64,000 nt of DNA from a virus: positions 1-64,000 of IMG/VR virus record IMGVR_UViG_3300022903_000002, one strand, 5' to 3'. The position numbers were made by a program, and so were the translations under genes. Position 1 is the stretch's first letter. The number at the start of each line of letters is the position of its first letter. This document shows positions 2,111 to 53,216 of this stretch, piece after piece. The notes beneath the pieces were generated by a model. That model did not search any database. It was given only the letters and a program-made list of their open reading frames with translations, and was not told where the DNA came from.

Positions 2111-2732
2111 CCGTTTCTTTTCGCCCCGCAACACCACCCGCGCCATGCAGGACCCGGCCGAGCAGATGCTCGCCCTCGGCGCCTCATGGGGACGCGGCCC
2201 GGCTAACTTCATTGAGGAGCAGGAAGCCGCCGGCCAGCGCGAGATCGTGCACTCCGACGTCATCCCCTCCCGACTGAACTACTGCACCGAAGACGACCTG
2301 ACCGCCCTGGGCTTCAAACTCGGCGATGCCGTCGACGGCGACCCCATGTTCCGACACGCGACCCTCCCGGACGGATGGGAGCGCGAGGGCAGCGCGCACG
2401 CCATGTGGTCCTATCTGCTCGACGGGCTGGGACGGAAGCGCGCCTCGATCTTCTACAAAGCCGCTTTCTACGACCGCGACGCGTTCGTCTCCGTCACGAC
2501 CGTGAGCGGCTACGTCTCGAGCCAGGCATACGACAAGCAGCCTGTCGTGCTCGACGACACGTGGGCCACGAAGGAAGCCGTATTCGCCGCCATCGGCGAG
2601 CTCCGGACCCGTGATGCCGAGCGGGTCGAGGAGTGGACCCAGTACGGCAACGATGAGTACGTCCGCGAGTACAGCGCGAAGGTCCGCGAGTGGGATGCCT
2701 TCAAGGCGCGGATCGAGGCCAGCGATGGCTGA
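2103..2732 (+). CDS. Hypothetical phage protein
   Basis: GGAG RBS, good codon usage. Confidence 0.75.
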   Translation: MADRFFSPRNTTRAMQDPAEQMLALGASWGRGPANFIEEQEAAGQREIVHSDVIPSRLNYCTEDDLTALGFKLGDAVDGDPMFRHATLPDGWEREGSAHAMWSYLLDGLGRKRASIFYKAAFYDRDAFVSVTTVSGYVSSQAYDKQPVVLDDTWATKEAVFAAIGELRTRDAERVEEWTQYGNDEYVREYSAKVREWDAFKARIEASDG

Positions 2733-3060
2733 GCAACTCGACCTGCTGGCCGCTGCCCGAGCTGGCCGCGACGAGGGCATGGCCCGCACCACCGAAGCCG
2801 CTGGCGACGACGAGATCACCGTCCTCGACGCCGCAATCGCACGGATGGCCGCCACCGGCGACGTCTTCTCCGTGAACGACATCAGGTCCGAACTCGACGG
2901 TGTCCGCGGCCCGCTGGTCGGCGCGAGATTCAGTTTCGCCCGAAGGCGTGGCCTCATCGTCCCGGTGTCGTACACCCCATCGACGGAGCCACGAACGCAT
3001 GCCCACCCGGTCCGCACCTGGCAGGGCACGGCGAAGGCCCGTAGGGACGTGGCGGCGTGA
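2725..3060 (+). CDS. Hypothetical protein
   Basis: Overlap-coupled ORF MAEQLDLL... Confidence 0.7.
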   Translation: MAEQLDLLAAARAGRDEGMARTTEAAGDDEITVLDAAIARMAATGDVFSVNDIRSELDGVRGPLVGARFSFARRRGLIVPVSYTPSTEPRTHAHPVRTWQGTAKARRDVAA

Positions 3061-3308
3061 ACCCCCGAACCGTATCCCAACCCGCAGCCTGGGGTTCCGC
3101 CGCTATCGCCACCGTGACGATCCTCGCCGCCCTGTGCGTCGGCGGAGCCACCGGCACAGCCCTTTTCTGGGCCACCAACATCTACGACTACGGCGCCCTC
3201 ACCCACACGCTCACGATCGGCGTGCTCATCGCCGCGATCGTCGCCGACCTCTCCTGGATGACACGAACCGGCACCGTCTTGTACCGCTCGTACAGGAGGC
3301 CGTCGTGA
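3057..3308 (+). CDS. Small membrane protein
   Basis: Two hydrophobic segments; GTGA coupling. Confidence 0.65.
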   Translation: MNPRTVSQPAAWGSAAIATVTILAALCVGGATGTALFWATNIYDYGALTHTLTIGVLIAAIVADLSWMTRTGTVLYRSYRRPS

Positions 3309-3676
3309 TCCGCCTCGCATGGGGGATGGCCCTCCTCGGCACAGCAGCGGCCATCGCCGCGGTCCTCATCACAGACCTCCTGGTTCAACGCCCCTCATCA
3401 CTGATCCAGCACGCCTGGGCGCGATGGTGTGAACGTCAGGACCAGCGACTTGGGCTCGGCTCCTACGAGCCACAACCCGAGGACGAGGCGGCTACGACCG
3501 CACTCGAGGCGTGGCTCGCCGGCGGTGACCCGCTCGCCGACGCTCCCGCCCGCGAGATGGGCGTGTGGCTCACCCCCGACCAGGCAGACGACCTGGATCT
3601 CCTCGCCGTCGAGACATGGCCGCGGAACGAGTACCTCGAGATCGCTGACCTGTACATGCGGGGTGAGGCGCCGTGA
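3305..3676 (+). CDS. Hypothetical protein with N-terminal TM helix
   Basis: AGGAGG RBS, GTGA coupling. Confidence 0.6.
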   Translation: MIRLAWGMALLGTAAAIAAVLITDLLVQRPSSLIQHAWARWCERQDQRLGLGSYEPQPEDEAATTALEAWLAGGDPLADAPAREMGVWLTPDQADDLDLLAVETWPRNEYLEIADLYMRGEAP

Positions 3677-3831
3677 CCGCCTCCACGCGACGTAAGGCGA
3701 CCCGCATCGCCGCGGGTTGCTTCGTACTGGCCGCTGTCGGTGTCCGCTACGGCTACACGCATGCCGCAGTGTTCGGCCCCGGCTGGACCGCCAAGAAGCT
3801 CGTAGCCGCAGGCCGAGGCGGCACACCATGA
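3673..3831 (+). CDS. Small membrane protein (52 aa, not in ORF track)
   Basis: Fills gap with GTGA/ATGA overlaps at both ends. Confidence 0.5.
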   Translation: MTASTRRKATRIAAGCFVLAAVGVRYGYTHAAVFGPGWTAKKLVAAGRGGTP

Positions 3832-4487
3832 CCGCAGCGAAACAAGAAGTCCGCCACGGCTACACCCTCGCCGACCTCGACCGCTACGCCCACATCAGTG
3901 TTGCCACCGCCTGGACCAACACCATGGACTACCGCGACCGATACGACGCGGCCTGGCACGCCATCGCCGAACGCCTCTACAACACCGAACACGAGCAGAC
4001 GCCGACGACCCGCGACCTAAAGATCGCTGGAACGCGCGCAGTGAATCGCCTCGCACAAGACGAAGGCCGCCACCACGGATTCGACCGGGCCAACCCCGAG
4101 GCCGGCCTGGAAGGCATGCCCGGCTTCCAGCGGTACTGGGCGTTGCACCATGCAACCCCCTCACCCGAGGACGCCATCGTCGACCGGATCGCCCTCACTC
4201 AGATCTGGCCGGAGCTGTCCGCCACCCACCGGCAGGTCCTCCTTGTACTGGCCGTCCACGCAGACCACCAACTCGCCGCCGACGCACTGGACCGCAGCCT
4301 GCCGACCTATCGCTCACACCTGAGGCATGCACGTCAGCGATACCGGGAGCTGTGGCACGCGCCTGAAACCGCGTCCGCGATGTGGGGTCAATCCCGCGGC
4401 CGGCCTGGACGCCGCACCGCCGCGCAGACCTTGGCGAACCGCATCCAGCAACGTGCACGCCGCGAGAGGAAGGGCCGGGCCGCGTGA
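3828..4487 (+). CDS. ECF sigma-factor-like protein (sigma70 region 4 HTH)
   Basis: 'PEDAIVDRIAL..IWPELSATHRQVLLV......AADALDRSLPTYRSHLRHAR' resembles sigma70_r4_2. Confidence 0.6.
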   Translation: MTAAKQEVRHGYTLADLDRYAHISVATAWTNTMDYRDRYDAAWHAIAERLYNTEHEQTPTTRDLKIAGTRAVNRLAQDEGRHHGFDRANPEAGLEGMPGFQRYWALHHATPSPEDAIVDRIALTQIWPELSATHRQVLLVLAVHADHQLAADALDRSLPTYRSHLRHARQRYRELWHAPETASAMWGQSRGRPGRRTAAQTLANRIQQRARRERKGRAA

Positions 4488-16486: not shown

Positions 16487-17298
16487 TGTATGACCACGGC
16501 ACCTACGCGAAGTACAAGCTCGACAACTGCCGCTGCTACCCGTGCTGCGGCGCCGGGTCTGCGTATCGGATGAACCGGTCACGGGCGATCGCCTACGGCA
16601 CGTGGCAGCCCTTCGTCGACGCCGAACCGGTCCGCCAGCACATTCAGCACCTCCGCGGGTGCGGGCTTGGGATGCGGCGGATCGCAGAGCTGGCCGGAGT
16701 CGACCAATGCCAGATGCGTCGCATCGTCAACGGGATGCGCGGTAAGCCCCCGATCGCGCGCATGAGGCCGGCGAACGCTCAGGCGATCCTTGCCGTGGAG
16801 CCAACCCTCGACAACATCGCACCGAAAACCGTCATCGATGCGGCGGGCTCGCGCCGGCGCCTGCAGGCCTTGGTCTGCCTCGGCTGGTCGCAGTCGAAGC
16901 TCGCTGATCGGCTGGGGATGACGGTCCGGAACTTCTCCACTCTGATGCGGACGCCGCGGATCACGGCGGGGAAGGCCCGCCAGATCCGCGCACTGTACGA
17001 CGCCCTGTGGGATCAGGCGCCGCCGGAAGCGACGCATCACGAGAAGAGCGCTGCTTCGCGCGCCCGGAACTACGCGAACGCTCGCAGGTGGCTCCCACCG
17101 ATGGCATGGGACGACGACCTGATCGACTTGCCAGCAGCCGAGCTCGTCACCGAGTTGAAGCGGCGGATCGATCAGATGGACGACGCCGAGATGCGGAGTC
17201 ACCGCTATGCCCGCTACACGCTCGGGGAGCGCTCCCCGTTGATTGCTGCGGCGGCGCGCGAGTTCGAGCGCCGGCGCTTGTCGAAGGTGGCGTCATGA
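16486..17298 (+). CDS. HTH DNA-binding protein with N-terminal Cys motif
   Basis: 'HGT...Y....CRC..C', two HTH-like segments, 'RRLQALV.LGWS'. Confidence 0.75.
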   Translation: MYDHGTYAKYKLDNCRCYPCCGAGSAYRMNRSRAIAYGTWQPFVDAEPVRQHIQHLRGCGLGMRRIAELAGVDQCQMRRIVNGMRGKPPIARMRPANAQAILAVEPTLDNIAPKTVIDAAGSRRRLQALVCLGWSQSKLADRLGMTVRNFSTLMRTPRITAGKARQIRALYDALWDQAPPEATHHEKSAASRARNYANARRWLPPMAWDDDLIDLPAAELVTELKRRIDQMDDAEMRSHRYARYTLGERSPLIAAAAREFERRRLSKVAS

Positions 17299-25735: not shown

Positions 25736-25785
25736 CCCGGCCTGTCCCCTGAGAGTGGGCGGCAGGCCGGGTCAGCCCACTCTCA
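25736..25785 (+). ncRNA. Intergenic hairpin with loop-downstream pairing (pseudoknot/switch), copy 1
   Basis: Stem 25736-25746/25761-25771; loop TGAGAGTGGGC 25750-25760 complementary to GCCCACTCTCA 25775-25785. Confidence 0.6.
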
Positions 25786-33640: not shown

Positions 33641-33708
33641 CCCGGCCTGCCTCGTACTTTCTGGAAGTGGGGCGTGCGTGCGCAGGTCGGGTCAAAGCCC
33701 CACTTCCA
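33641..33708 (+). ncRNA. Intergenic hairpin with loop-downstream pairing (pseudoknot/switch), copy 2
   Basis: Stem 33641-33650/33682-33691; loop TGGAAGTGGGGC 33662-33673 complementary to GCCCCACTTCCA 33697-33708. Confidence 0.6.
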
Positions 33709-45996: not shown

Positions 45997-46293
45997 ATGG
46001 CCCGGGAAATCTCCTACACGCCTGATTACAAGGGCACGGGCAAGCTGATGCGCGGTAAGGAGATGGAGGCCTTCATGCGCCTCAAAGCGCAGGAAGGCAA
46101 GCAGTACGCCGAGGTGATCGCACCGCGCGAAACAGGCGAGTACGCGTCGGCTTTCCGTGTCGCCTCGACCCGCTCCGGCGACCGCGCTACCGCCTACCTG
46201 TACAACGACTCTGATCACGCGTACCTCGTCGAGTACGTCGATGACTACCGAACCCTCGGCGTCGTCGCGGACATCATCGAGAACGGTCTGTGA
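45997..46293 (+). CDS. Neck/tail completion protein (HK97 gp10-like)
   Basis: 'AP..TG.Y..AF', 'A..VE'; synteny. Confidence 0.7.
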   Translation: MAREISYTPDYKGTGKLMRGKEMEAFMRLKAQEGKQYAEVIAPRETGEYASAFRVASTRSGDRATAYLYNDSDHAYLVEYVDDYRTLGVVADIIENGL

Positions 46294-46673
46294 TGACCGT
46301 CCTCGCACCGTTCCCGGACGTGGAACGCGCGGTTGGCGACCTCGTAACCGGCCTCGGAACGGCAGGGTCGGAAACGAACATCACCCTGCAGTCCACGCTT
46401 CCGTACATCCGGATCCGCCGCCTTGGCGGTTCCGATGACCGCGTCACCGACGCCGCCCGCGTGGACGTGCACGTGTACGACACGAATGCCACGTCGGCGA
46501 AAGAGATCTCCGAGCAGATCCGGCAGCGGCTGATCTCAGGGCCATCTATGACCGCCCATGGCGTCATCGACCGGGCCTGGACCGAGATCGGCCCGCAGAC
46601 GATCCCAGCCGATGACACCGCGGATATCCGTCAGGTCGTCGCCACTTACCGCATTTCGATGCGCCGCCGCTGA
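46290..46673 (+). CDS. Tail terminator
   Basis: 'P.I.I.R.GG.D', synteny before major tail. Confidence 0.78.
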   Translation: MMTVLAPFPDVERAVGDLVTGLGTAGSETNITLQSTLPYIRIRRLGGSDDRVTDAARVDVHVYDTNATSAKEISEQIRQRLISGPSMTAHGVIDRAWTEIGPQTIPADDTADIRQVVATYRISMRRR

Positions 46674-46752
46674 CCAGCGGCTCCTTTTTCAGGCCCGCCA
46701 GCCTGTCCCAGCCCCGCCCGCGGGGCCACCTATCCCGCAGAGGGGAACATCC

Positions 46753-47421
46753 ATGGCTGGCGTCAGCTATGACGATCTTCAACAGCGCAATGCCGCGCTG
46801 ATCTTCAAGGCCCTGCAGGGGTCCGTGTTCGTCGCCCCGTCGAGCGTCGCAGCGATCACCGCACTGACCGACACCGACAAGCTCCTCAAGGAACTCCCCG
46901 AAGGGTACGAGGACGTCGGCTGGATCAGCGACGACGGAGCCCAGTTCTCCCGCGACACCGACACTAGCGACATCACCGGCTGGGGAAGTGTGGAGCCGCT
47001 CCGCTCGGACGTCACACAGGACACCACCACGCTGCAGATGGAAGCCCTGGAGACCAAGAAGTCGACGATCGGTCTCTACACAGGCGCCGACATGGACGCG
47101 GTGACCCCGGACCCGGTCTCCGGTGAGGTCAGCATCCAGAAGCCCGCCCGGCCCGGGTTCCGCTACTACCGGGTCCTCGCTGTTGCCGTGGACCTCACCG
47201 ATGACGGCGAGTACTACGTCGCCCGGTTCCTGCCGCGGGCCCGCGTCACGGACTACGACGACCAGAACATGCAGTCCAGCGACGACTCGCCGATCACCTG
47301 GCCTGTCACGATGACGGGCTACGAGGACCCCCTTCTCGGCTACTCGGAGAACTACCTGTTCGGAGGCCCCGGCTGGGCGACGAGGCTCGCCGCGATGGGC
47401 TTCGAGCCCATCGGCTCCTGA
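46753..47421 (+). CDS. Major tail protein
   Basis: 'LP.GY..VGWISDDG..F', 'WG..EP.RSD'; synteny. Confidence 0.9.
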   Translation: MAGVSYDDLQQRNAALIFKALQGSVFVAPSSVAAITALTDTDKLLKELPEGYEDVGWISDDGAQFSRDTDTSDITGWGSVEPLRSDVTQDTTTLQMEALETKKSTIGLYTGADMDAVTPDPVSGEVSIQKPARPGFRYYRVLAVAVDLTDDGEYYVARFLPRARVTDYDDQNMQSSDDSPITWPVTMTGYEDPLLGYSENYLFGGPGWATRLAAMGFEPIGS

Positions 47422-47424
47422 TAC

Positions 47425-47483
47425 GTCGCGGCGGCCGGTCTAGCTGGCGGGCCCCGGCCGCCGCGACTCCAAGGCCCGCCAGC
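47425..47483 (+). ncRNA. Intergenic hairpin with loop-downstream pairing (pseudoknot/switch), copy 3
   Basis: 14-bp stem 47425-47438/47454-47467; loop GCTGGCGGGCC 47443-47453 complementary to 47473-47483. Confidence 0.65.
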
Positions 47484-47502
47484 ACAAGAGAAGGGTCCGG
47501 CC

Positions 47503-47688
47503 GTGGCCGCAGCAAGCTCCCAATACCCCGTCTACGTGTCACCGGACGGCGAGAAGGAACAGTTCGCGACGTCGCCAGCCCGTGAGGTGCAACTCAGGCA
47601 TGCGGGCTGGCGGCTCAAATCCGAACCTCGCAAGAAGAAGACGCCGAGCGGTGACCTGAGCCGCTGGCAGCAACCCACCACCAACTGA
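47503..47688 (+). CDS. Small hypothetical protein
   Basis: 'SPDG......SPA.EV.LR..GW'; GAAGGG RBS. Confidence 0.6.
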   Translation: MAAASSQYPVYVSPDGEKEQFATSPAREVQLRHAGWRLKSEPRKKKTPSGDLSRWQQPTTN

Positions 47689-47703
47689 CAGAGAGGCCCG
47701 CCA

Positions 47704-47985
47704 ATGGCCGCCAAGAAGAACCAGTTCCAGCTCGCCGTCTACCGGGCGGAGGCCGTCAAGGCGCCGTTCGAGCTGATCATCGACGAGAAGACCAGCGTCA
47801 TGATCCCGCCGCCGAGTACCGATGATGTTCTCGCCGTCGCCGAGGCGGCCACTCCGCGCGAGCAGTTGCGGCTCCTCGCCGGCGACCAGTTCGGGACACT
47901 GATGGAGCACATCAGTGATGAGCCCGGCGGGATCTTGAAGCCTCTGCTGAACGATATGACCAGTCACTTCAAGCTGGGGGAATAG
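47704..47985 (+). CDS. Tail assembly chaperone (short form)
   Basis: Ends ...KLGE* over GGGGGAA slippery site. Confidence 0.88.
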   Translation: MAAKKNQFQLAVYRAEAVKAPFELIIDEKTSVMIPPPSTDDVLAVAEAATPREQLRLLAGDQFGTLMEHISDEPGGILKPLLNDMTSHFKLGE

Positions 47986-48440
47986 CGCGCGCTGCTGGCC
48001 TGATCGACAGGTACGGCAGCGCGATCCGCGCTGACCTGCGCCGATTCTACGGCGTGGACATGCTTGATTTCTTCCGGGACAGATTGTCGGCACAAGAGAT
48101 CCTCGACTATCTCGAGCACATGCCGCGCACGTCCGCGTATCACACGGCCATTGCGGAGGACGAGGACCTTGCCGAGCAACTGGCGGGAATGCCAGATCAG
48201 AAGCCGGGACCGCCGCGGCTAGCGGAGTTTTCACCAGAGGTGCAGGTCCTTGCTGAGGTGCGGGATCTGGTGGCGACGCTCATCAACGTGCAGATCGCCC
48301 GGGCCGGCAAGAAACCATCGAAGGTGAAGCCTTACCCGCGGCCCGTATCGGCGGTTGAGCAGGTCCGCCGGCGGGAGCGGTACCGGAAGCACACGTCGCT
48401 GGTCGCACAACTCATTCCCGGGTCGGATCGACAGCGGTAG
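47704..48440 (+). CDS. Tail assembly chaperone, -1 frameshifted long form
   Basis: GGGGGAA at 47976-47982; -1 frame continues GIARAAGLIDRYGSAIRADLRRFYGVD into ORF ending at 48440. Confidence 0.85.
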
Positions 48441-48473: not shown

Positions 48474-51400
48474 GTGGCCGCTCAAGTCGGTGCTGCTTAC
48501 ATCAAGGTCGCTCCGAACCTCGCCGGTTTCCACCGCACGATCACCAAAGAGCTAAAAAGCCTCAGCCCGCAGGTCAAGAAGATCGGGTTGGGGCTCGGCC
48601 GGAACCTTGGCGACGGCATCAAGGTCGGCCTCGGCGACCCGCTTTCCGGACCGCTGGATGAGTCCACCAAGAAGCAACGGCAGAAAGGCCCCAAGCAGGG
48701 CGAAGAGGTCGCTGGGGCGTTCGCGAAGGGTTTCGAGAAGCGCCTGAAGGCAGCGTTTCAGGCCCTGCCGAAAGCCGAAATCGACGCTGATTCCTCACCC
48801 GCCGACAAGAAGATCGCGGAGCTTCGGCGACAGCTTGAGGCACTCTCCGGCAAGACCGTCGGTGTCGACATTGACGCGGGTGCGGCTCTCTCAGAGGTCG
48901 CCGCGATCCGGTCCGAGTTGGAGGCACTGGACGGCCACGAGTCGATCCAGGTCGATGTCGACGCCGCTGCGGCCCTGGCGGAGCTCACCGCGGTACAGGT
49001 CGAGGTCGATCGGGTAGATGGGCGCACAGCCCGTGTGAACGTCAACGCGGACGTGTTGCCGGCGTTGGCTGGTATCGGGCTTGTCAGCACGGCGTTGCTT
49101 GGTCTGACGGCGATTCCGATTGCGGCGACGGTCGGTGTGGGGATCCTGTCGCTGGTCGGTCCGCTTGGTGCGGCGGGAGCTGGGTTCGCTGGTCTTGCTG
49201 CGGTCGCGACTCCGTCGATCAACCGTATCGGCGAGGCGCTGAAGGTCCAGAAGCAGGCGCAGGACGCGTCGACGGGTAGTGCCGCGCAGGCCGCGGCGGC
49301 GAACAAGAAGCTCGCCGCGACGATGGCGGCTCTGTCGCCTGCTGAGCGCGACGTGCTCAAGTCGTGGAACGGGCTGCGGACGGCGTTCACGGGCTGGGCG
49401 AAGGAACTGCAGCCTGCCGTGCTCCCGCTGTTCACGCGCGGCATCAACCTGGTGAAGCAGGCTCTGCCCGGGTTGACGCCGATCGTGAAAGGCGCGGCCG
49501 GCGCGGTCAACGGTCTCCTCGGGGACGTTACCCGCGCGGCTCAGTCGCCGTTCTGGCGGCAACTACGGACGAATATCACAGGTCTGGTGCCGACGTCGAT
49601 CACGGGTTTCGGGAAGATCGCCGGGAACATCGCGACGGGTCTGGCTGGGATCGTGTCCGCGTTCTTGCCGTATGCGCCCACGATCTTGTCGTTCATCACC
49701 CGGATCACCGCGGGTTTCGCCCGTTGGGGCCAGGGGCTGGGGACCTCGAACGGCTTCGCGAAGTTTATGGCCTACGTCAAGCAGAACGCGCCGCTGATCC
49801 TCGAGACGGTCAAGCAGCTCGGCTTGTCGATCGCGCACATTGTGTCGTCGCTGGCACCACTCGGCCCGGCCGTCCTCGGCGGCTTCGGGCTGCTGCTGCG
49901 GTTTATCGGCATGCTGACGCCCGGCGAGATCCAGGCCATCGCGATCGCGTTCACGCTCCTGTCGGTGTCGATCTGGGCCGTGAATTTCGCGCTTGAAGCC
50001 AATCCGGTGGTGCTTGTCATAACGCTGATCGTCGCTCTTGTGGCGGCGGTCGTCTTGGCGTTCAACCACGTGACGTGGTTCCACAATGCGGTGGTCGCGG
50101 CGTTCAACGGCATCAAGGCCGCGGTCCTGTTCGTCTGGAATTCGGTCTTGAAGCCGACGTTCTCGGCTCTCGTGGTCGCTTTCCAAGCGATCAGCACGGT
50201 CGTGATGTGGCTGTGGCGGAACGTGATCTCCCCGGCATTCAGCGCCATCTCGCTGGCCGCACGGATCCTGTTCGCGATCGTCGCCGTTGCCGTCCTGGCG
50301 CCGCTGGTCATCGCGTTCAACATCCTCAAGGCCGTGATTCTGGCTTGGTGGCACATCGTTGTGGTGCCAGCGTTCGCGGCGGTGCAGGCGGTCATCGCGG
50401 CAGCATGGGTGGTGATCCACCCGATCCTGGCCGCGCTCGGCGTCGCGGTCCGCGCTGTTGGCGCTGCGGCGATGTGGCTGTGGCACAACGCGATCGTGCC
50501 GGCCTGGAACGGCATCAGCCTTGCAATTGCCACCGTGTACAACACGGTGATTCACCCGATCTTGAACGCGCTGAACGCGGTGCTACGGAACGTGATCGCC
50601 CCGGTTTTCCGGTGGATCTACACATCGGTGATCAAGCCGATGTTCCAGGCGGCGGGCGCTGTGATCCGTAACGTCTGGAACACCGCTATAAGTCCGGCGT
50701 TCAACGCTCTTAAGTCGGGTGTGAACGCGGTCAAGAACGCGTTCTCCACCGCTGTCTCGGCAATCGGGCGAATCTGGAAGGGCCTGGAGTCCGCCACCAA
50801 GAAACCCGTCCAATTTGTTGTCAACACGGTCTACAACAACGGCATCCGTTCCGTGTGGAACAAGGTCGCCGGCCTAGTTCACCTGCCTCAGCTGCCTGCG
50901 GCGAAGTTCGCTCAGGGCGGTATCTTCCCGGGCTACACGCCCGGCAAGGACCCGTACTCCATGCCGATGGCCGCCTTCTCTGGCGGCGAGGCCGTCATGC
51001 GGCCCGAGTTCACCCGAGCGGTCGGCCCCGGGTTCGTGTACGCGGCGAACAAGGTAGCTCGCAAGCGTGGGCCTGGCGGTGTCCGGGATTTCCTCGCGAA
51101 CGGTGAGATGAAGTTCGCGACGGGCGGGATCCTGCCCGGACGGCATGTGGCGGCATTCGCGAATGGCGGCATCATCGGAGGGATCCTCGGGGCCGTCAAG
51201 CGTGCCAGCAGTCTCGTGGTTCGCGGCGCGTCATCGGTCCTCGGCGGGGGTGCGAGCGCGTTCGCGAAGACCGTCCTCAACCCGATCCTGTCTCGGATCC
51301 CGGGGGCGGATTCGCCGTGGGCGCAGGGCATCCTGTCCCTGCCGAAACGGATGATCGATGGGTTCATCTCCTGGCTGCACACAGCCATCGATCCGAAGCT

Positions 51401-53216
51401 CGGCGGTGACGCGCATGGTGTTGTCGCCGCAGCGAAGAAATACATCGGTATCGGCGACGATAGAGGACCTAACAACAACATCTTCAGCCGCTGGTGGGGA
51501 ATGCCGGGCGGGCCTTGGTGCTTCGCGGCCGGAACACTTGTGGACACCCCACAAGGCTTGGTCCCGATCGAGAACCTCAAGGTCGGCGACCCGGTCTACA
51601 CCGGAACCGGCAATGTCCAGCGGGTGTCGTGTCTGTACAGGAGGCAGAAAGAGCTGTGGCGCGTCGTCGCCATGGGAATGCCCGAGACCTTCACGACCGA
51701 AGACCATCCGTATCTTGTGCGTAAGCGCCTCGCTGGGCGGAAGCGGGCGTTTGCGGAGCCGCAGCGCACATCGGTCAAGGACCTCCGGAAGGGGGACCTG
51801 ATCGGCCTTCCGCTCGGGCCGGAAGGAACGACGAAGTACGACCCGGACCTGAGTTACGTCCTCGGCATGTATGTCGCCGACGGATGCCGGAGCAAGGGCA
51901 CCGTGATCTTCTCGGATGCCCCTGGTGAGACCGAACGGATCCTAACCGCCCTCAAGCGCGCCGGCTTCGATCGAGCATGGACCACACGTAACGGCGGTGG
52001 GACGAACACGGGCATCACCGACAGCGGCCTCTACGAACTGTGCGGGAAGTTCGGGGACCTGGCACACAACAAGGAGATCCCCGATGAAGTCCACGCTTGG
52101 GATGCCGCCGCCAGGACCGCTTTCGTAGAGGGGTTCCTCGCCGGGGACGGGCACCTGAACGATGCGATCTCGTGCGGTGGTTCGCCGCGCTGGGAGGTCA
52201 CGACCGTTTCACCGAAGTTGGCCGTCGGGCTGGCCAAACTACTGCGGTCCCTGGGGTTCCTCCCGTCGGTGAATGACGGTCGCCCTGAACAATCGCTGAC
52301 GATCTGCGGACGGGATACACACTGCCGGAAGCAGTTCAAGCTGAGCTGGCGGAACGCCCATCGCGATGAACTTACCTATCACCATTACGTCGAAGAGGAC
52401 GGTGTCATCTGGGTTCCGGTTCGTGAGGCGGAGCCGACGGGGCGAGTCGAGTGCGTGTATGACATCACCGTTCCTGGCGAGCACACATTCATCGCTAACG
52501 GAGCGTATTCGTTCAACTGCGCCATGTTCGTTTCTCGTGTCATCAAGGACGCCCACGCCGAGAAGTACTACTCCGGATATCCGACGGCGCTGGCCGCCGG
52601 GTACAACTCGATGCGGCATGTCAGTAGCGGGCAAGCTGGTGACCTCGCCACATACAACGGCGGCGGTCACATCAACATCATCGAGAAACCCGCTGGCGGG
52701 GCGTACATGACGATCGGCGGGAACCAGAACGCGCTCGTACAGCGCGGTATCCGGTCTCCCGGCCTGATTTTGCGCCCGGCGTTCGCGAACGGCGGGATCA
52801 TCGGCCGAGAAGCGCAGCGCCTGTTCAAGCACGACGCACCGCGGCAGATCGACAAGCACGAACTGCAGACGCCGATGGTGCAACTCATGCGTTCGCTGCC
52901 GTCCGGGCAGATGAGCAACGTTGTCCGCGCGATCACGAAGAAGCACCTCACCGTCGCGAACGCCGGCGTCTACGACGACGGAGGTGTTATTGCCCCTGGG
53001 TTGAACCTTGTCGCGAACGCGTCACGAAAACCGGAAGCGCTGCTGAGCAACGCGCAGTGGCGTGGCATCACCGAGGCCGCCGCTGGTGGCGACACGCACT
53101 ATCACGCGCACCTGGACGAGATGACGCAGGCGGCCTACGGCACGCAGATCCGCTCGACATTCCACGCGATGGAAACCCAGCGGGCCATGAAAGAGCGCAT
53201 CGGACGGAGGCGCTGA
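48474..53216 (+). CDS. Tape measure protein with C-terminal CHAP-type peptidase domain interrupted by an intein
   Basis: 1580 aa, W/F-periodic helical repeats; spliced extein reads ...GMPGGPW-CAMFVS...GHINII. Confidence 0.93.
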   Translation: MAAQVGAAYIKVAPNLAGFHRTITKELKSLSPQVKKIGLGLGRNLGDGIKVGLGDPLSGPLDESTKKQRQKGPKQGEEVAGAFAKGFEKRLKAAFQALPKAEIDADSSPADKKIAELRRQLEALSGKTVGVDIDAGAALSEVAAIRSELEALDGHESIQVDVDAAAALAELTAVQVEVDRVDGRTARVNVNADVLPALAGIGLVSTALLGLTAIPIAATVGVGILSLVGPLGAAGAGFAGLAAVATPSINRIGEALKVQKQAQDASTGSAAQAAAANKKLAATMAALSPAERDVLKSWNGLRTAFTGWAKELQPAVLPLFTRGINLVKQALPGLTPIVKGAAGAVNGLLGDVTRAAQSPFWRQLRTNITGLVPTSITGFGKIAGNIATGLAGIVSAFLPYAPTILSFITRITAGFARWGQGLGTSNGFAKFMAYVKQNAPLILETVKQLGLSIAHIVSSLAPLGPAVLGGFGLLLRFIGMLTPGEIQAIAIAFTLLSVSIWAVNFALEANPVVLVITLIVALVAAVVLAFNHVTWFHNAVVAAFNGIKAAVLFVWNSVLKPTFSALVVAFQAISTVVMWLWRNVISPAFSAISLAARILFAIVAVAVLAPLVIAFNILKAVILAWWHIVVVPAFAAVQAVIAAAWVVIHPILAALGVAVRAVGAAAMWLWHNAIVPAWNGISLAIATVYNTVIHPILNALNAVLRNVIAPVFRWIYTSVIKPMFQAAGAVIRNVWNTAISPAFNALKSGVNAVKNAFSTAVSAIGRIWKGLESATKKPVQFVVNTVYNNGIRSVWNKVAGLVHLPQLPAAKFAQGGIFPGYTPGKDPYSMPMAAFSGGEAVMRPEFTRAVGPGFVYAANKVARKRGPGGVRDFLANGEMKFATGGILPGRHVAAFANGGIIGGILGAVKRASSLVVRGASSVLGGGASAFAKTVLNPILSRIPGADSPWAQGILSLPKRMIDGFISWLHTAIDPKLGGDAHGVVAAAKKYIGIGDDRGPNNNIFSRWWGMPGGPWCFAAGTLVDTPQGLVPIENLKVGDPVYTGTGNVQRVSCLYRRQKELWRVVAMGMPETFTTEDHPYLVRKRLAGRKRAFAEPQRTSVKDLRKGDLIGLPLGPEGTTKYDPDLSYVLGMYVADGCRSKGTVIFSDAPGETERILTALKRAGFDRAWTTRNGGGTNTGITDSGLYELCGKFGDLAHNKEIPDEVHAWDAAARTAFVEGFLAGDGHLNDAISCGGSPRWEVTTVSPKLAVGLAKLLRSLGFLPSVNDGRPEQSLTICGRDTHCRKQFKLSWRNAHRDELTYHHYVEEDGVIWVPVREAEPTGRVECVYDITVPGEHTFIANGAYSFNCAMFVSRVIKDAHAEKYYSGYPTALAAGYNSMRHVSSGQAGDLATYNGGGHINIIEKPAGGAYMTIGGNQNALVQRGIRSPGLILRPAFANGGIIGREAQRLFKHDAPRQIDKHELQTPMVQLMRSLPSGQMSNVVRAITKKHLTVANAGVYDDGGVIAPGLNLVANASRKPEALLSNAQWRGITEAAAGGDTHYHAHLDEMTQAAYGTQIRSTFHAMETQRAMKERIGRRR
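51519..52517 (+). mobile_element. Intein (333 aa) with LAGLIDADG homing endonuclease
   Basis: Block A CFAAGTLVDT, block B TTEDHPY, LAGLIDADG motifs LGMYVADG and VEGFLAGDG, block F VYDITV...HTFIANG, ends SFN followed by Cys. Confidence 0.93.

Follow-up and report, generated by a model that had tools for sequence, protein, structure and literature searches.

How does one tail operon supply tail-tube subunits by the hundreds alongside only a few molecules of tail assembly chaperone and tape measure protein? This excess is usually ascribed to the G/GT frameshift together with terminators and weak ribosome sites. The first 64 kb (the window) of the 105-kb viral record IMGVR_UViG_3300022903_000002, a genome of 65% G+C, point to a further answer. 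Just past its major tail protein (MTP) gene stands a hairpin, here called the hub hairpin, whose loop is complementary to words in the leaders of several genes of the tail operon. Judged from these sequences and from those of relatives, the hairpin is most likely an undescribed RNA device that would set the amount of chaperone relative to tail-tube protein.

The hub hairpin (47425..47467, plus strand) begins 3 nt past the MTP stop codon (TGA, 47419-47421). Its arms, GTCGCGGCGGCCGG (47425-47438) and CCGGCCGCCGCGAC (47454-47467), form 14 of 14 perfect pairs and enclose the 15-nt loop TCTAGCTGGCGGGCC (47439-47453), exactly as the initial annotation of this DNA had described. It is the longest perfect hairpin of the structural region, with a calculated energy of -36.6 kcal/mol including flanks and -33 kcal/mol for the GC-rich stem-loop alone. 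The pairing segment of the loop, GCTGGCGGGCC (47443-47453), adjoins the 3' arm.

All three complementary words named in that annotation were found, each on the plus strand. Box 1, AGGCCCGCCAGC (46691..46702), lies 18 nt past the stop of the tail terminator gene and ~50 nt upstream of the MTP start, and 11 of its nucleotides (46692-46702) are complementary to the hub loop (duplex energy -27.1 kcal/mol). Box 2 (47472..47483), the same word and the proximal partner or decoy of the loop, sits 4 nt 3' of the hairpin, with its 11-nt pairing core (47473-47483) 5 nt away. It belongs to the leader of a conserved 61-aa open reading frame (ORF), 6 nt upstream of the Shine-Dalgarno (SD) sequence of that ORF. 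The leaders had all been attributed to tail genes, which holds for those of the MTP and the chaperone; the second word leads the 61-aa ORF, which is not a known tail gene. Box 3, AGGCCCGCCA (47694..47703), begins 5 nt past the stop of the 61-aa ORF and is the complement of 9-10 nt of the loop. It covers the last two bases of the chaperone SD (GAGAGG) and the whole spacer up to the chaperone ATG, which follows directly (47704). The calculated loop:box 3 duplex reaches -21.6 kcal/mol, against 4.5 kcal/mol for locally opening box 3; overall, the loop-box duplexes range from -21.6 to -27.9 kcal/mol against opening costs of 4.5-9.9 kcal/mol. The 12-mer AGGCCCGCCAGC occurs at only two sites in the entire record, namely boxes 1 and 2. 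The 10-mer AGGCCCGCCA occurs four times in the window versus 0.32 expected, a number reached in none of 100 shuffles. Its fourth copy (16973-16982), inside a coding region distant from the tail genes, is probably a chance occurrence.

Covariation of loop words and boxes in related tail operons

Searches with the MTP of viral, genome and metagenome collections yielded ~60 loci (numbered with the prefix L) whose MTPs were 32-100% identical to that of the window. In ~40 related loci the stem covaried, and the loop word and its targets changed together, giving nine loop words in all. The competing long-range RNA pairings that had been proposed for this locus, for example occlusion of the chaperone ribosome-binding site (RBS), are thus supported by a loop and targets that covary through nine words and by a stem that covaries independently of them. 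The word of the window's own group, CTGGCGGGCC, was present in 11 loci. Where the MTP was 74-86% identical, this core and the three boxes were kept and the stem and surroundings varied; the stem of L004, for instance, is CCGCTCCGGCCGG around the same core. Box 1 was perfect in 10 of the 11 members.

More distant loci carried other words. L011 and L039 have GGGTGGGCT in the loop and AGCCCACCC in the boxes, the third of which abuts the chaperone ATG. The MTP of L039 is 75% identical to that of the window, yet the L011-type word is present in the loop and box 1 of this locus; therefore the word does not simply follow MTP descent. In L021 and L025 the loop word is CGGGCTGGGTTG and the boxes read CAAC(C/T)C(A/G)GCCCG. 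The word of L043, CGGGCAGGGTTG, departs from that of L021 at a single loop position (U to A), and the corresponding T is present in each of the three boxes of L043. L028 (CTGGGTGGT) and L050 and L051 (CCGGGTGG(TT)) have GGGTGG-based loops and CCACCC-based boxes that overlap the chaperone SD. In L019 and L047 the word TGGGCAGGG forms the loop of a second hairpin, and CCCTGCCCA is located between the SD and the ATG of the gene at the chaperone position. That gene, a member of phrog_24495 of unknown function, was placed by gene order and within-lineage similarity, and neither box 1 nor box 2 was present in these two loci. The same design was also seen in a separate group (L086, L087, L100, L109 and others) whose MTP belongs to phrog_117 and whose chaperone belongs to phrog_330: a stem GGGGGAG.., a loop ..CTGGCGGGCC, then GCCCGCC, and the chaperone RBS GAAAGG(C/T)C(C/T)GCC..ATG.

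A nucleotide search of cultured phages gave no match to the window, and protein-level relatives were used instead. With the MTP as query, tblastn returned 722 actinophage records of 41% identity or less, and twelve cultured actinophages were inspected for the hairpin and its targets. The Arthrobacter phages EvenBluerMoon and MargaretKali share the G-rich loop word (G)TGGTGGGCC in differing stems (loops CCGTGGTGGGCC and CCTTGGTGGGCC, respectively), and GGCCCACCA(C) stands both 7-10 nt past the hairpin and immediately upstream of the chaperone ATG. Three unrelated stems surround the word (C)CUCCCCGGU in Nocardia phage NC1, Rhodococcus phage GuyFagieri and Gordonia phage Jifall16 (Zierdtviridae), with an anti-SD-like CCUCC or CUCCCC in the loop. 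In these phages the target ACCGGGGAG(G) occurs twice, 4-7 nt past the hairpin and as the chaperone gene's SD. The same word was found in eight IMG/VR contigs, in which six stem variants surround an invariant loop and both boxes are present. Pattern scans of IMG/VR for a loop followed by a box mostly returned ordinary hairpins with the word in their arms, and only hits with a separate enclosing stem were kept. Box 2 of Jifall16 is a pseudo-SD, too distant from any start codon to work as an SD, and therefore fits a competitor for the loop.

In Zierdtviridae the polarity is reversed: a C-rich anti-SD loop faces an SD as target, versus the G-rich loop and C-rich spacer of the window. It is therefore complementarity, not C-richness, that is conserved. 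A Rho-loading (rut) role of C-rich boxes was also considered and is contradicted by the C-rich loop and G-rich boxes of Zierdtviridae.

Across these lineages box 3 was the most constant partner. No positive lineage lacked it, and it either overlaps the SD or takes up the spacer between SD and start; the gene behind it is a gpG-type chaperone in every positive lineage with a family assignment (in L019 and L047 by gene order only). Box 2 was nearly universal and stood 4-12 nt from the stem. Box 1 is lineage-specific, being kept and covarying in the window's group, L011/L039, L021/L025, L043 and L050. Relatives thus did not keep the proximal target alone; the target in the chaperone RBS is the best conserved of the three.

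The strength of the covariation was evaluated in several ways. A cross-lineage matrix of duplex energies was uninformative, as longer loops always scored lower, and was replaced by run-length scores, shuffles and permutations. For most boxes, the lineage's own loop beat dinucleotide shuffles of its own box windows (p 0.0025-0.035); box 1 was not significant in L028, L043 and L051. When the nine loops were permuted over the nine lineages, the true sum of best pairing runs was 179 against a mean of 117.5 (standard deviation 8.9). The true assignment was the single best of 362,880 permutations for box 3 and for boxes 2 and 3 together; for box 2 alone, three permutations equalled or exceeded it. 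A 12-row alignment of the stem and the loop:box 2 helix had 96.3% of its cells paired and nine pairs changed on both sides. None of 500 shuffles was as high, and slid controls were 27-55% paired. Taken separately, the hub stem had 99.4% of cells paired with double changes at 6 of 14 pairs, and the loop:box 2 helix had 92.4% paired with double changes at three pairs.

The complementarity between the hub loop and its boxes is not a matter of chance. A coincidental resemblance of GC-rich words around an ordinary hairpin might be expected of a genome with this base composition, and one-mismatch copies of the 11-mer are indeed modestly enriched in the window (12 versus 4.8 expected). This explanation is contradicted by the covariation through nine words, the permutation test, the shuffle controls and the fixed position in the chaperone RBS, and its probability is practically negligible.

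A shared binding protein would likewise make all copies of a word co-evolve, and the initial annotation had named a protein-binding box as its alternative. A phage or host regulator would then recognize AGGCCCGCCA either on RNA or, irrespective of orientation, on double-stranded DNA. Within 1 kb there are four copies, one of which is inverted with respect to the other three, and short repeated boxes are known from actinophages, among them stoperators, start-associated sequences and the 17-bp repeats of Cluster O (PMC4351075). However, at internal non-Watson-Crick positions of credible boxes, deviations that keep a G·U pair on the mRNA strand outnumbered A·C by 20 to 1 (binomial p = 2e-5; the counts are not all independent and fall to ~10:0 without doubtful box 1 sites in coding sequence and double-counted sites), a bias not expected of a DNA site. 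The inverted copy always lies in the loop of a hairpin with covarying arms, with the pairing segment always adjoining the 3' arm. Loop extensions specific to a lineage are matched by its boxes, giving pairings of 13 bp in L016, 12 bp in L009 and 11 bp in L051. RNA pairing is favored over a DNA box because of these three features. In addition, the boxes occupy differing positions with respect to start codons, Zierdtviridae show the reverse polarity, and the word lacks the dispersal of a repeat with many genome-wide copies (the 12-mer is found twice in 105 kb, and three of the four copies of the 10-mer in the window lie within 1 kb). A protein-binding box is accordingly disfavored, and we regard it as very improbable.

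Candidate control of the chaperone start

With moderate confidence, we read the locus as a long-range pairing in cis by which the hub loop would mask the chaperone start, with the proximal copy as a decoy and the sites placed just past stop codons. The tail mRNA would form a network of RNA-RNA pairings around the single hub hairpin, whose very stable stem would keep the loop single-stranded. The loop could then pair with the word in the chaperone RBS, ~230 nt downstream. Such pairing would bury the spacer between SD and AUG and lower the translation of the chaperone (G/GT), and perhaps of downstream genes, in comparison with MTP. Box 2, which lies a few nucleotides 3' of the hairpin, may compete for the loop as a decoy or as part of an alternative structure, and in the window's lineage a third copy of the word, box 1, is available at the 5' edge of the MTP leader. 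As is found where an RBS is sequestered, the downstream SD and start region is complementary to a distant upstream segment, and the two covary (box 3). Repression of the chaperone start is better supported by this anatomy than looping of the mRNA. Pairing in vivo, repression, the decoy role of box 2 and opening by ribosomes are all steps that we infer from sequence comparison. No RNA sequencing run containing this sequence was listed.

Ribosomes that terminate upstream might open the pairings and couple chaperone initiation to upstream translation, as in the long-range coupling of RNA phage MS2; this is conceivable because the hairpin and boxes lie just downstream of stop codons. The distance from the MTP stop to the hairpin is 2-4 nt in most lineages, box 3 begins 0-12 nt past the stop of the small ORF in about two thirds of them, and box 1 overlaps or closely follows the stop of the tail terminator gene. 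A wider proposal, tentative at best, is a three-way RNA switch driven by ribosome traffic. The hub loop would alternate among partners past the stops of the tail terminator gene, the MTP gene and the small ORF, so that termination would set the stoichiometry of tail tube, chaperone and tape measure. The device is modular, being found with unrelated MTP and chaperone families and in two opposite polarities, and the switch would be general for siphoviruses of Actinobacteria.

Several observations weigh against masking of the chaperone start in cis by the hub loop. Many homologous tail operons of Mycobacterium, Cutibacterium and Corynebacterium phages lack the device. In the Mycobacterium phages Cosmo, Snenia, Kostya and prophiT49-2, and in Propionibacterium phage Kubed, Corynebacterium phage Zion and Gordonia phage Aleemily, only ordinary hairpins or none were present, and no target for a loop was seen. 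The device is thus widespread and not universal. Box 1 is absent from the Arthrobacter, Zierdtviridae, L019 and L051 lineages. Two boxes contain an internal A·G mismatch (box 1 of L003 and box 3 of L025), and the RBS box of L109 is degenerate. The hairpin begins 14-70 nt past the stop in L043, L051, L019 and GuyFagieri, and box 3 lies about 40 nt from the small-ORF stop in L004 and L019; opening by ribosomes therefore cannot be universal. Furthermore, 11 bp within a closed loop of 15 nt are geometrically strained, and a 5-nt linker would probably not reach across a 14-bp stem in a classical H-type pseudoknot.

The last point concerns the structure that box 2 may adopt. In the window and in other lineages the loop is complementary, with covariation, to a downstream strand, as in an H-type pseudoknot. 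The linker between stem and box 2 is 5-12 nt for stems of 13-15 bp, and, going by the usual geometry of pseudoknots, linkers of this length are likely too short for such stems unless the base of the stem opens. A full H-type pseudoknot would thus be strained, so box 2 may pair only with the stem base open, or in an alternative hairpin (hairpin B) between the loop and box 2, for which -25.3 kcal/mol was calculated.

The position of the hairpin also raises the possibility that it acts on the abundant MTP message as a 3'-end or stability element, that is, as a terminator without U-tract or a barrier to exonucleases, and that the words serve RNA processing or stability. In one variant the loop-box helix, stacked on the 14-bp stem, would offer ~25 bp to RNase III; in another, box 1 and the loop would form a 5'-3' clamp that shields the ends of the MTP mRNA, as in Bacillus subtilis hbs. 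A stable stem directly past the MTP stop is present in nearly all lineages, and a pairing segment that always adjoins the 3' arm has a geometry that favors coaxial stacking. Box 1 begins right at the end of a terminator-like hairpin and pyrimidine run and could therefore mark a processed 5' end. Stem-loops lying right of other actinophages' major tail genes have been read as terminators (PMC4351075), and pairing between 5' and 3' untranslated regions (UTRs) that controls RNase access has precedents (PMC5737220, PMC3868564). The hub hairpin has the GC-rich stem-loop of an intrinsic terminator. However, it fails two defining features, the U-tract and the short loop: TCCAAGG follows the stem, relatives likewise lack a T-run, and the loop is 15 nt in the window and 10-22 nt, with conserved sequence, in relatives, compared with about 3-8 nt in terminators. 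Consistent with this, a terminator scan did not call the hub hairpin. The explanation also leaves open why the best-conserved partner sits in the chaperone RBS in all lineages and why the target in Zierdtviridae is the SD itself, and box 1, which the clamp would need, is missing in several lineages. We consider a primary role as a 3'-end or stability element unlikely.

The same complementarity and covariation would be seen if the loop acted in trans. Late in infection the MTP mRNA, or a stable 3' fragment with the hairpin at its end, would accumulate, and its loop would pair with boxes 2 and 3 of other tail transcripts, much as a small RNA derived from a 3' UTR does through a seed in its loop. 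Repression of translation downstream of MTP would then scale with the abundance of MTP mRNA. Seeds presented in loops are usual in small RNAs (sRNAs) of actinobacteria and Gram-positive bacteria, the Zierdtviridae loop CUUCCUCCCCGGU contains the anti-SD CCUCC, and a very stable hairpin would withstand 3' exonucleases. On the other hand, no promoter or terminator consensus was found flanking the hairpin, and a decoy 5-10 nt from the hairpin is more sensible in cis. A search with Rfam covariance models matched no family and gave only sub-threshold chance hits to miRNA models (E 0.4-4.8). Action in trans therefore appears improbable to us, and we retain masking of the chaperone start in cis as the preferred reading.

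Genes and further structures at the tail locus

The genes around the hub element, all on the plus strand, were assigned by PHROG search unless stated otherwise. The tail terminator gene (46290-46673) is followed by the MTP gene (46753..47421), which encodes 222 aa and matches phrog_476 (E 3.9e-63). The tail assembly chaperone (gpG-like, 47704..47985) matches profile positions 10-101 of phrog_2624, and its frameshift extension (gpT-like part, 48054..48440) matches positions 138-261 of the same profile; these coordinates are those of the ORF as listed, and the real junction lies upstream. The tape measure protein gene (48474..53216, an ORF of 1580 aa) was recognized by gene order.

The 61-aa ORF (47503..47688) between MTP and chaperone had tblastn matches in 11 loci at 48-73% identity and no match in the PHROG search; in cultured phages a hypothetical protein is annotated at the equivalent position. 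The ORF is in the MTP frame, and the 81 nt in between (47422-47502) contain no stop in that frame, which is probably a coincidence of high G+C because the open frame is not kept in L003 or L015. A fusion of MTP and the 61-aa ORF by UGA readthrough was ruled out, since L003 has an in-frame TAG and the ORF of L015 is out of frame. A ribosome hop from UCC to UCC over the hairpin was likewise rejected; from a reading of the window sequence only, its landing frame is non-conserved. Inside the 61-aa ORF lies a hairpin of 10 bp (13 with extensions; 47573-47612) whose arms CGCCAGCCCG and CGGGCTGGCG are similar to the box and loop words.

Upstream of MTP, the terminator-like scan detected a small hairpin, GCCGCT/AGCGGC, followed by TCCTTTTTC (46666..46690, plus strand). 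It spans the stop of the tail terminator gene and ends exactly at the start of box 1, and relatives have a hairpin, a pyrimidine run or both at this position. Just past box 1, the MTP leader contains a small GC hairpin, GCCCCG-CCCG-CGGGGC (46711..46726, plus strand); its stem GCCCC(G)/(C)GGGGC, with variable loops, is kept in all leaders of the window's group. The 3' half of box 1, CGCCAGCC (GCCAGCC), is complementary to the MTP start region UGGCUGGCG (UGGCUGG), pairing 46696-46703 with 46754-46762, and in the predicted minimum-energy folds of 9 of 11 related leaders the entire 5' leader is closed by this pairing. GCUGGCG is common to the hub loop and the MTP start region. The hub loop might thus compete for box 1 and free the MTP start, which we take as a lead only because the pair between box 1 and the MTP start shows no variation.

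Insertions were seen next to the hub element in two relatives. In L039 (1060-1450) an extra ORF of ~113 aa stands between MTP and the hairpin, which begins 4 nt past the stop of that ORF. In L035 (Ga0255336_102085, 2472-3370) a free-standing HNH endonuclease gene of ~0.9 kb separates the MTP stop from the hub hairpin. Beyond this insertion the hairpin, its loop and box 2 remain intact, and the element therefore tolerates displacement from the MTP stop. In L006 (IMGVR_UViG_3300003972_000048, 3620-3878) the MTP gene passes directly, ~10 codons short of its end, into a CRISPR array whose repeat is GTCGGCCCCGCGCACGCGGGGATGGTCCG. This junction is most likely an assembly join via a spacer that matches the tail gene; if so, an actinobacterium with a type I-E-like system has a spacer against this phage family. 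The stem at 46711-46726 resembles the stem of the type I-E-like repeat in L006 (GGCCCCGCGCACGCGGGG).

The hub architecture had also been likened to elements at 25.7 and 33.6 kb of the window. These are homologous hairpins with a partner word (25736-25785 and 33641-33708), and to that extent the likeness holds. Their loops, CAGGCCGGG and CAGGTCGGG, pair with a single partner, CCCGGCCTG, in the 5' flank, and no distal target was found within 2.5 kb. Outside the window, at record positions 99394-99428, a third hairpin has a loop ending in CGGGTCA, common to this pair.

Comparison with known systems

A full-text literature search for the loop and box words and for RNA structures of tail operons found no description of the hub element. 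Mechanisms of this class are already known, namely long-range coupling, the masking of an RBS by pairing within one RNA, and pairing between 5' and 3' UTRs, and the hub element itself is apparently undescribed. It adds to the means of setting tail-protein ratios a mechanism supported by RNA covariation, in which loop pairing with the chaperone RBS would be combined with a built-in competitor site. If true, it would be among the few cases of long-range intramolecular mRNA pairing that controls translation in a double-stranded DNA phage, and the three-way switch, should it apply, would be a general unrecognized route for siphoviruses of Actinobacteria to set tail-protein ratios. For annotation, a "terminator" past the major tail gene may be more than a terminator, a point relevant to the engineering of phage tail operons. 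Because this design also occurs in phages of Arthrobacter, Gordonia, Rhodococcus and Nocardia that are in culture and genetically tractable, it is directly testable with compensatory mutations.

In the Min Jou interaction of MS2, the replicase start is paired to a distant sequence in the coat gene and is opened by ribosomes that translate the coat. As in MS2, the RBS of a downstream cistron would be paired to a distant upstream segment of one polycistronic RNA, the upstream partner is placed where translating or terminating ribosomes can disturb it, and the purpose would be a fixed ratio of products. Unlike in MS2, a stable intergenic hairpin, not coding sequence, provides the upstream partner in its loop, the target is repeated proximally and, in some lineages, once more on the 5' side, and the setting is the tail operon of a double-stranded DNA phage; ribosome-dependent opening is a feature that we only infer here.

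Pairing between the two ends of a message is known from Staphylococcus aureus icaR, in which a motif past the stop codon pairs with the gene's own SD, blocks translation and creates an RNase III site (PMC3868564), and from 5'-3' UTR base pairing within the hbs mRNA of Bacillus subtilis (PMC5737220). Similarly, pairing of the hub loop with box 1 would join both ends of the MTP message, as box 1 in the MTP leader is complementary over 11 bp to the 3' loop. However, box 1 lies 50 nt upstream of the start, is not the SD of MTP and is missing from several lineages, the SD-proximal target belongs to a downstream gene, and one loop has two or three targets. In this last respect the hub hairpin resembles the hepatitis C virus SL9266/5BSL3.2 loops, which engage in alternative long-distance pairings and extended pseudoknots that switch states (PMC3413155, PMC4357731). 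Both offer the unpaired nucleotides of one stem-loop to several distant sites, whereas hepatitis C virus is a eukaryotic RNA virus in which replication versus translation is controlled, and the two have no sequence or evolutionary relationship.

Two systems are found in Actinobacteria and their phages. Cluster O mycobacteriophages have stem-loops or terminators right of the gene for the major tail subunit, with 12-13 bp stems, a T-run and small loops (PMC4351075). The position and the presumed lowering of downstream tail-gene expression are the same, whereas the hub hairpin has no U-tract and carries a conserved loop of 10-22 nt with covarying targets. In the 6C and B11 sRNAs of Actinobacteria, C-rich loops pair with SD regions (PMC10470900), and the C-rich anti-SD-like loop of Zierdtviridae, CUUCCUCCCCGGU, would likewise pair with the G-rich SD ACCGGGGAGG. 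In contrast to these sRNAs, the loop is contained within the tail mRNA itself, its target lies 400-500 nt downstream in cis, and the variant in the window has the opposite polarity.

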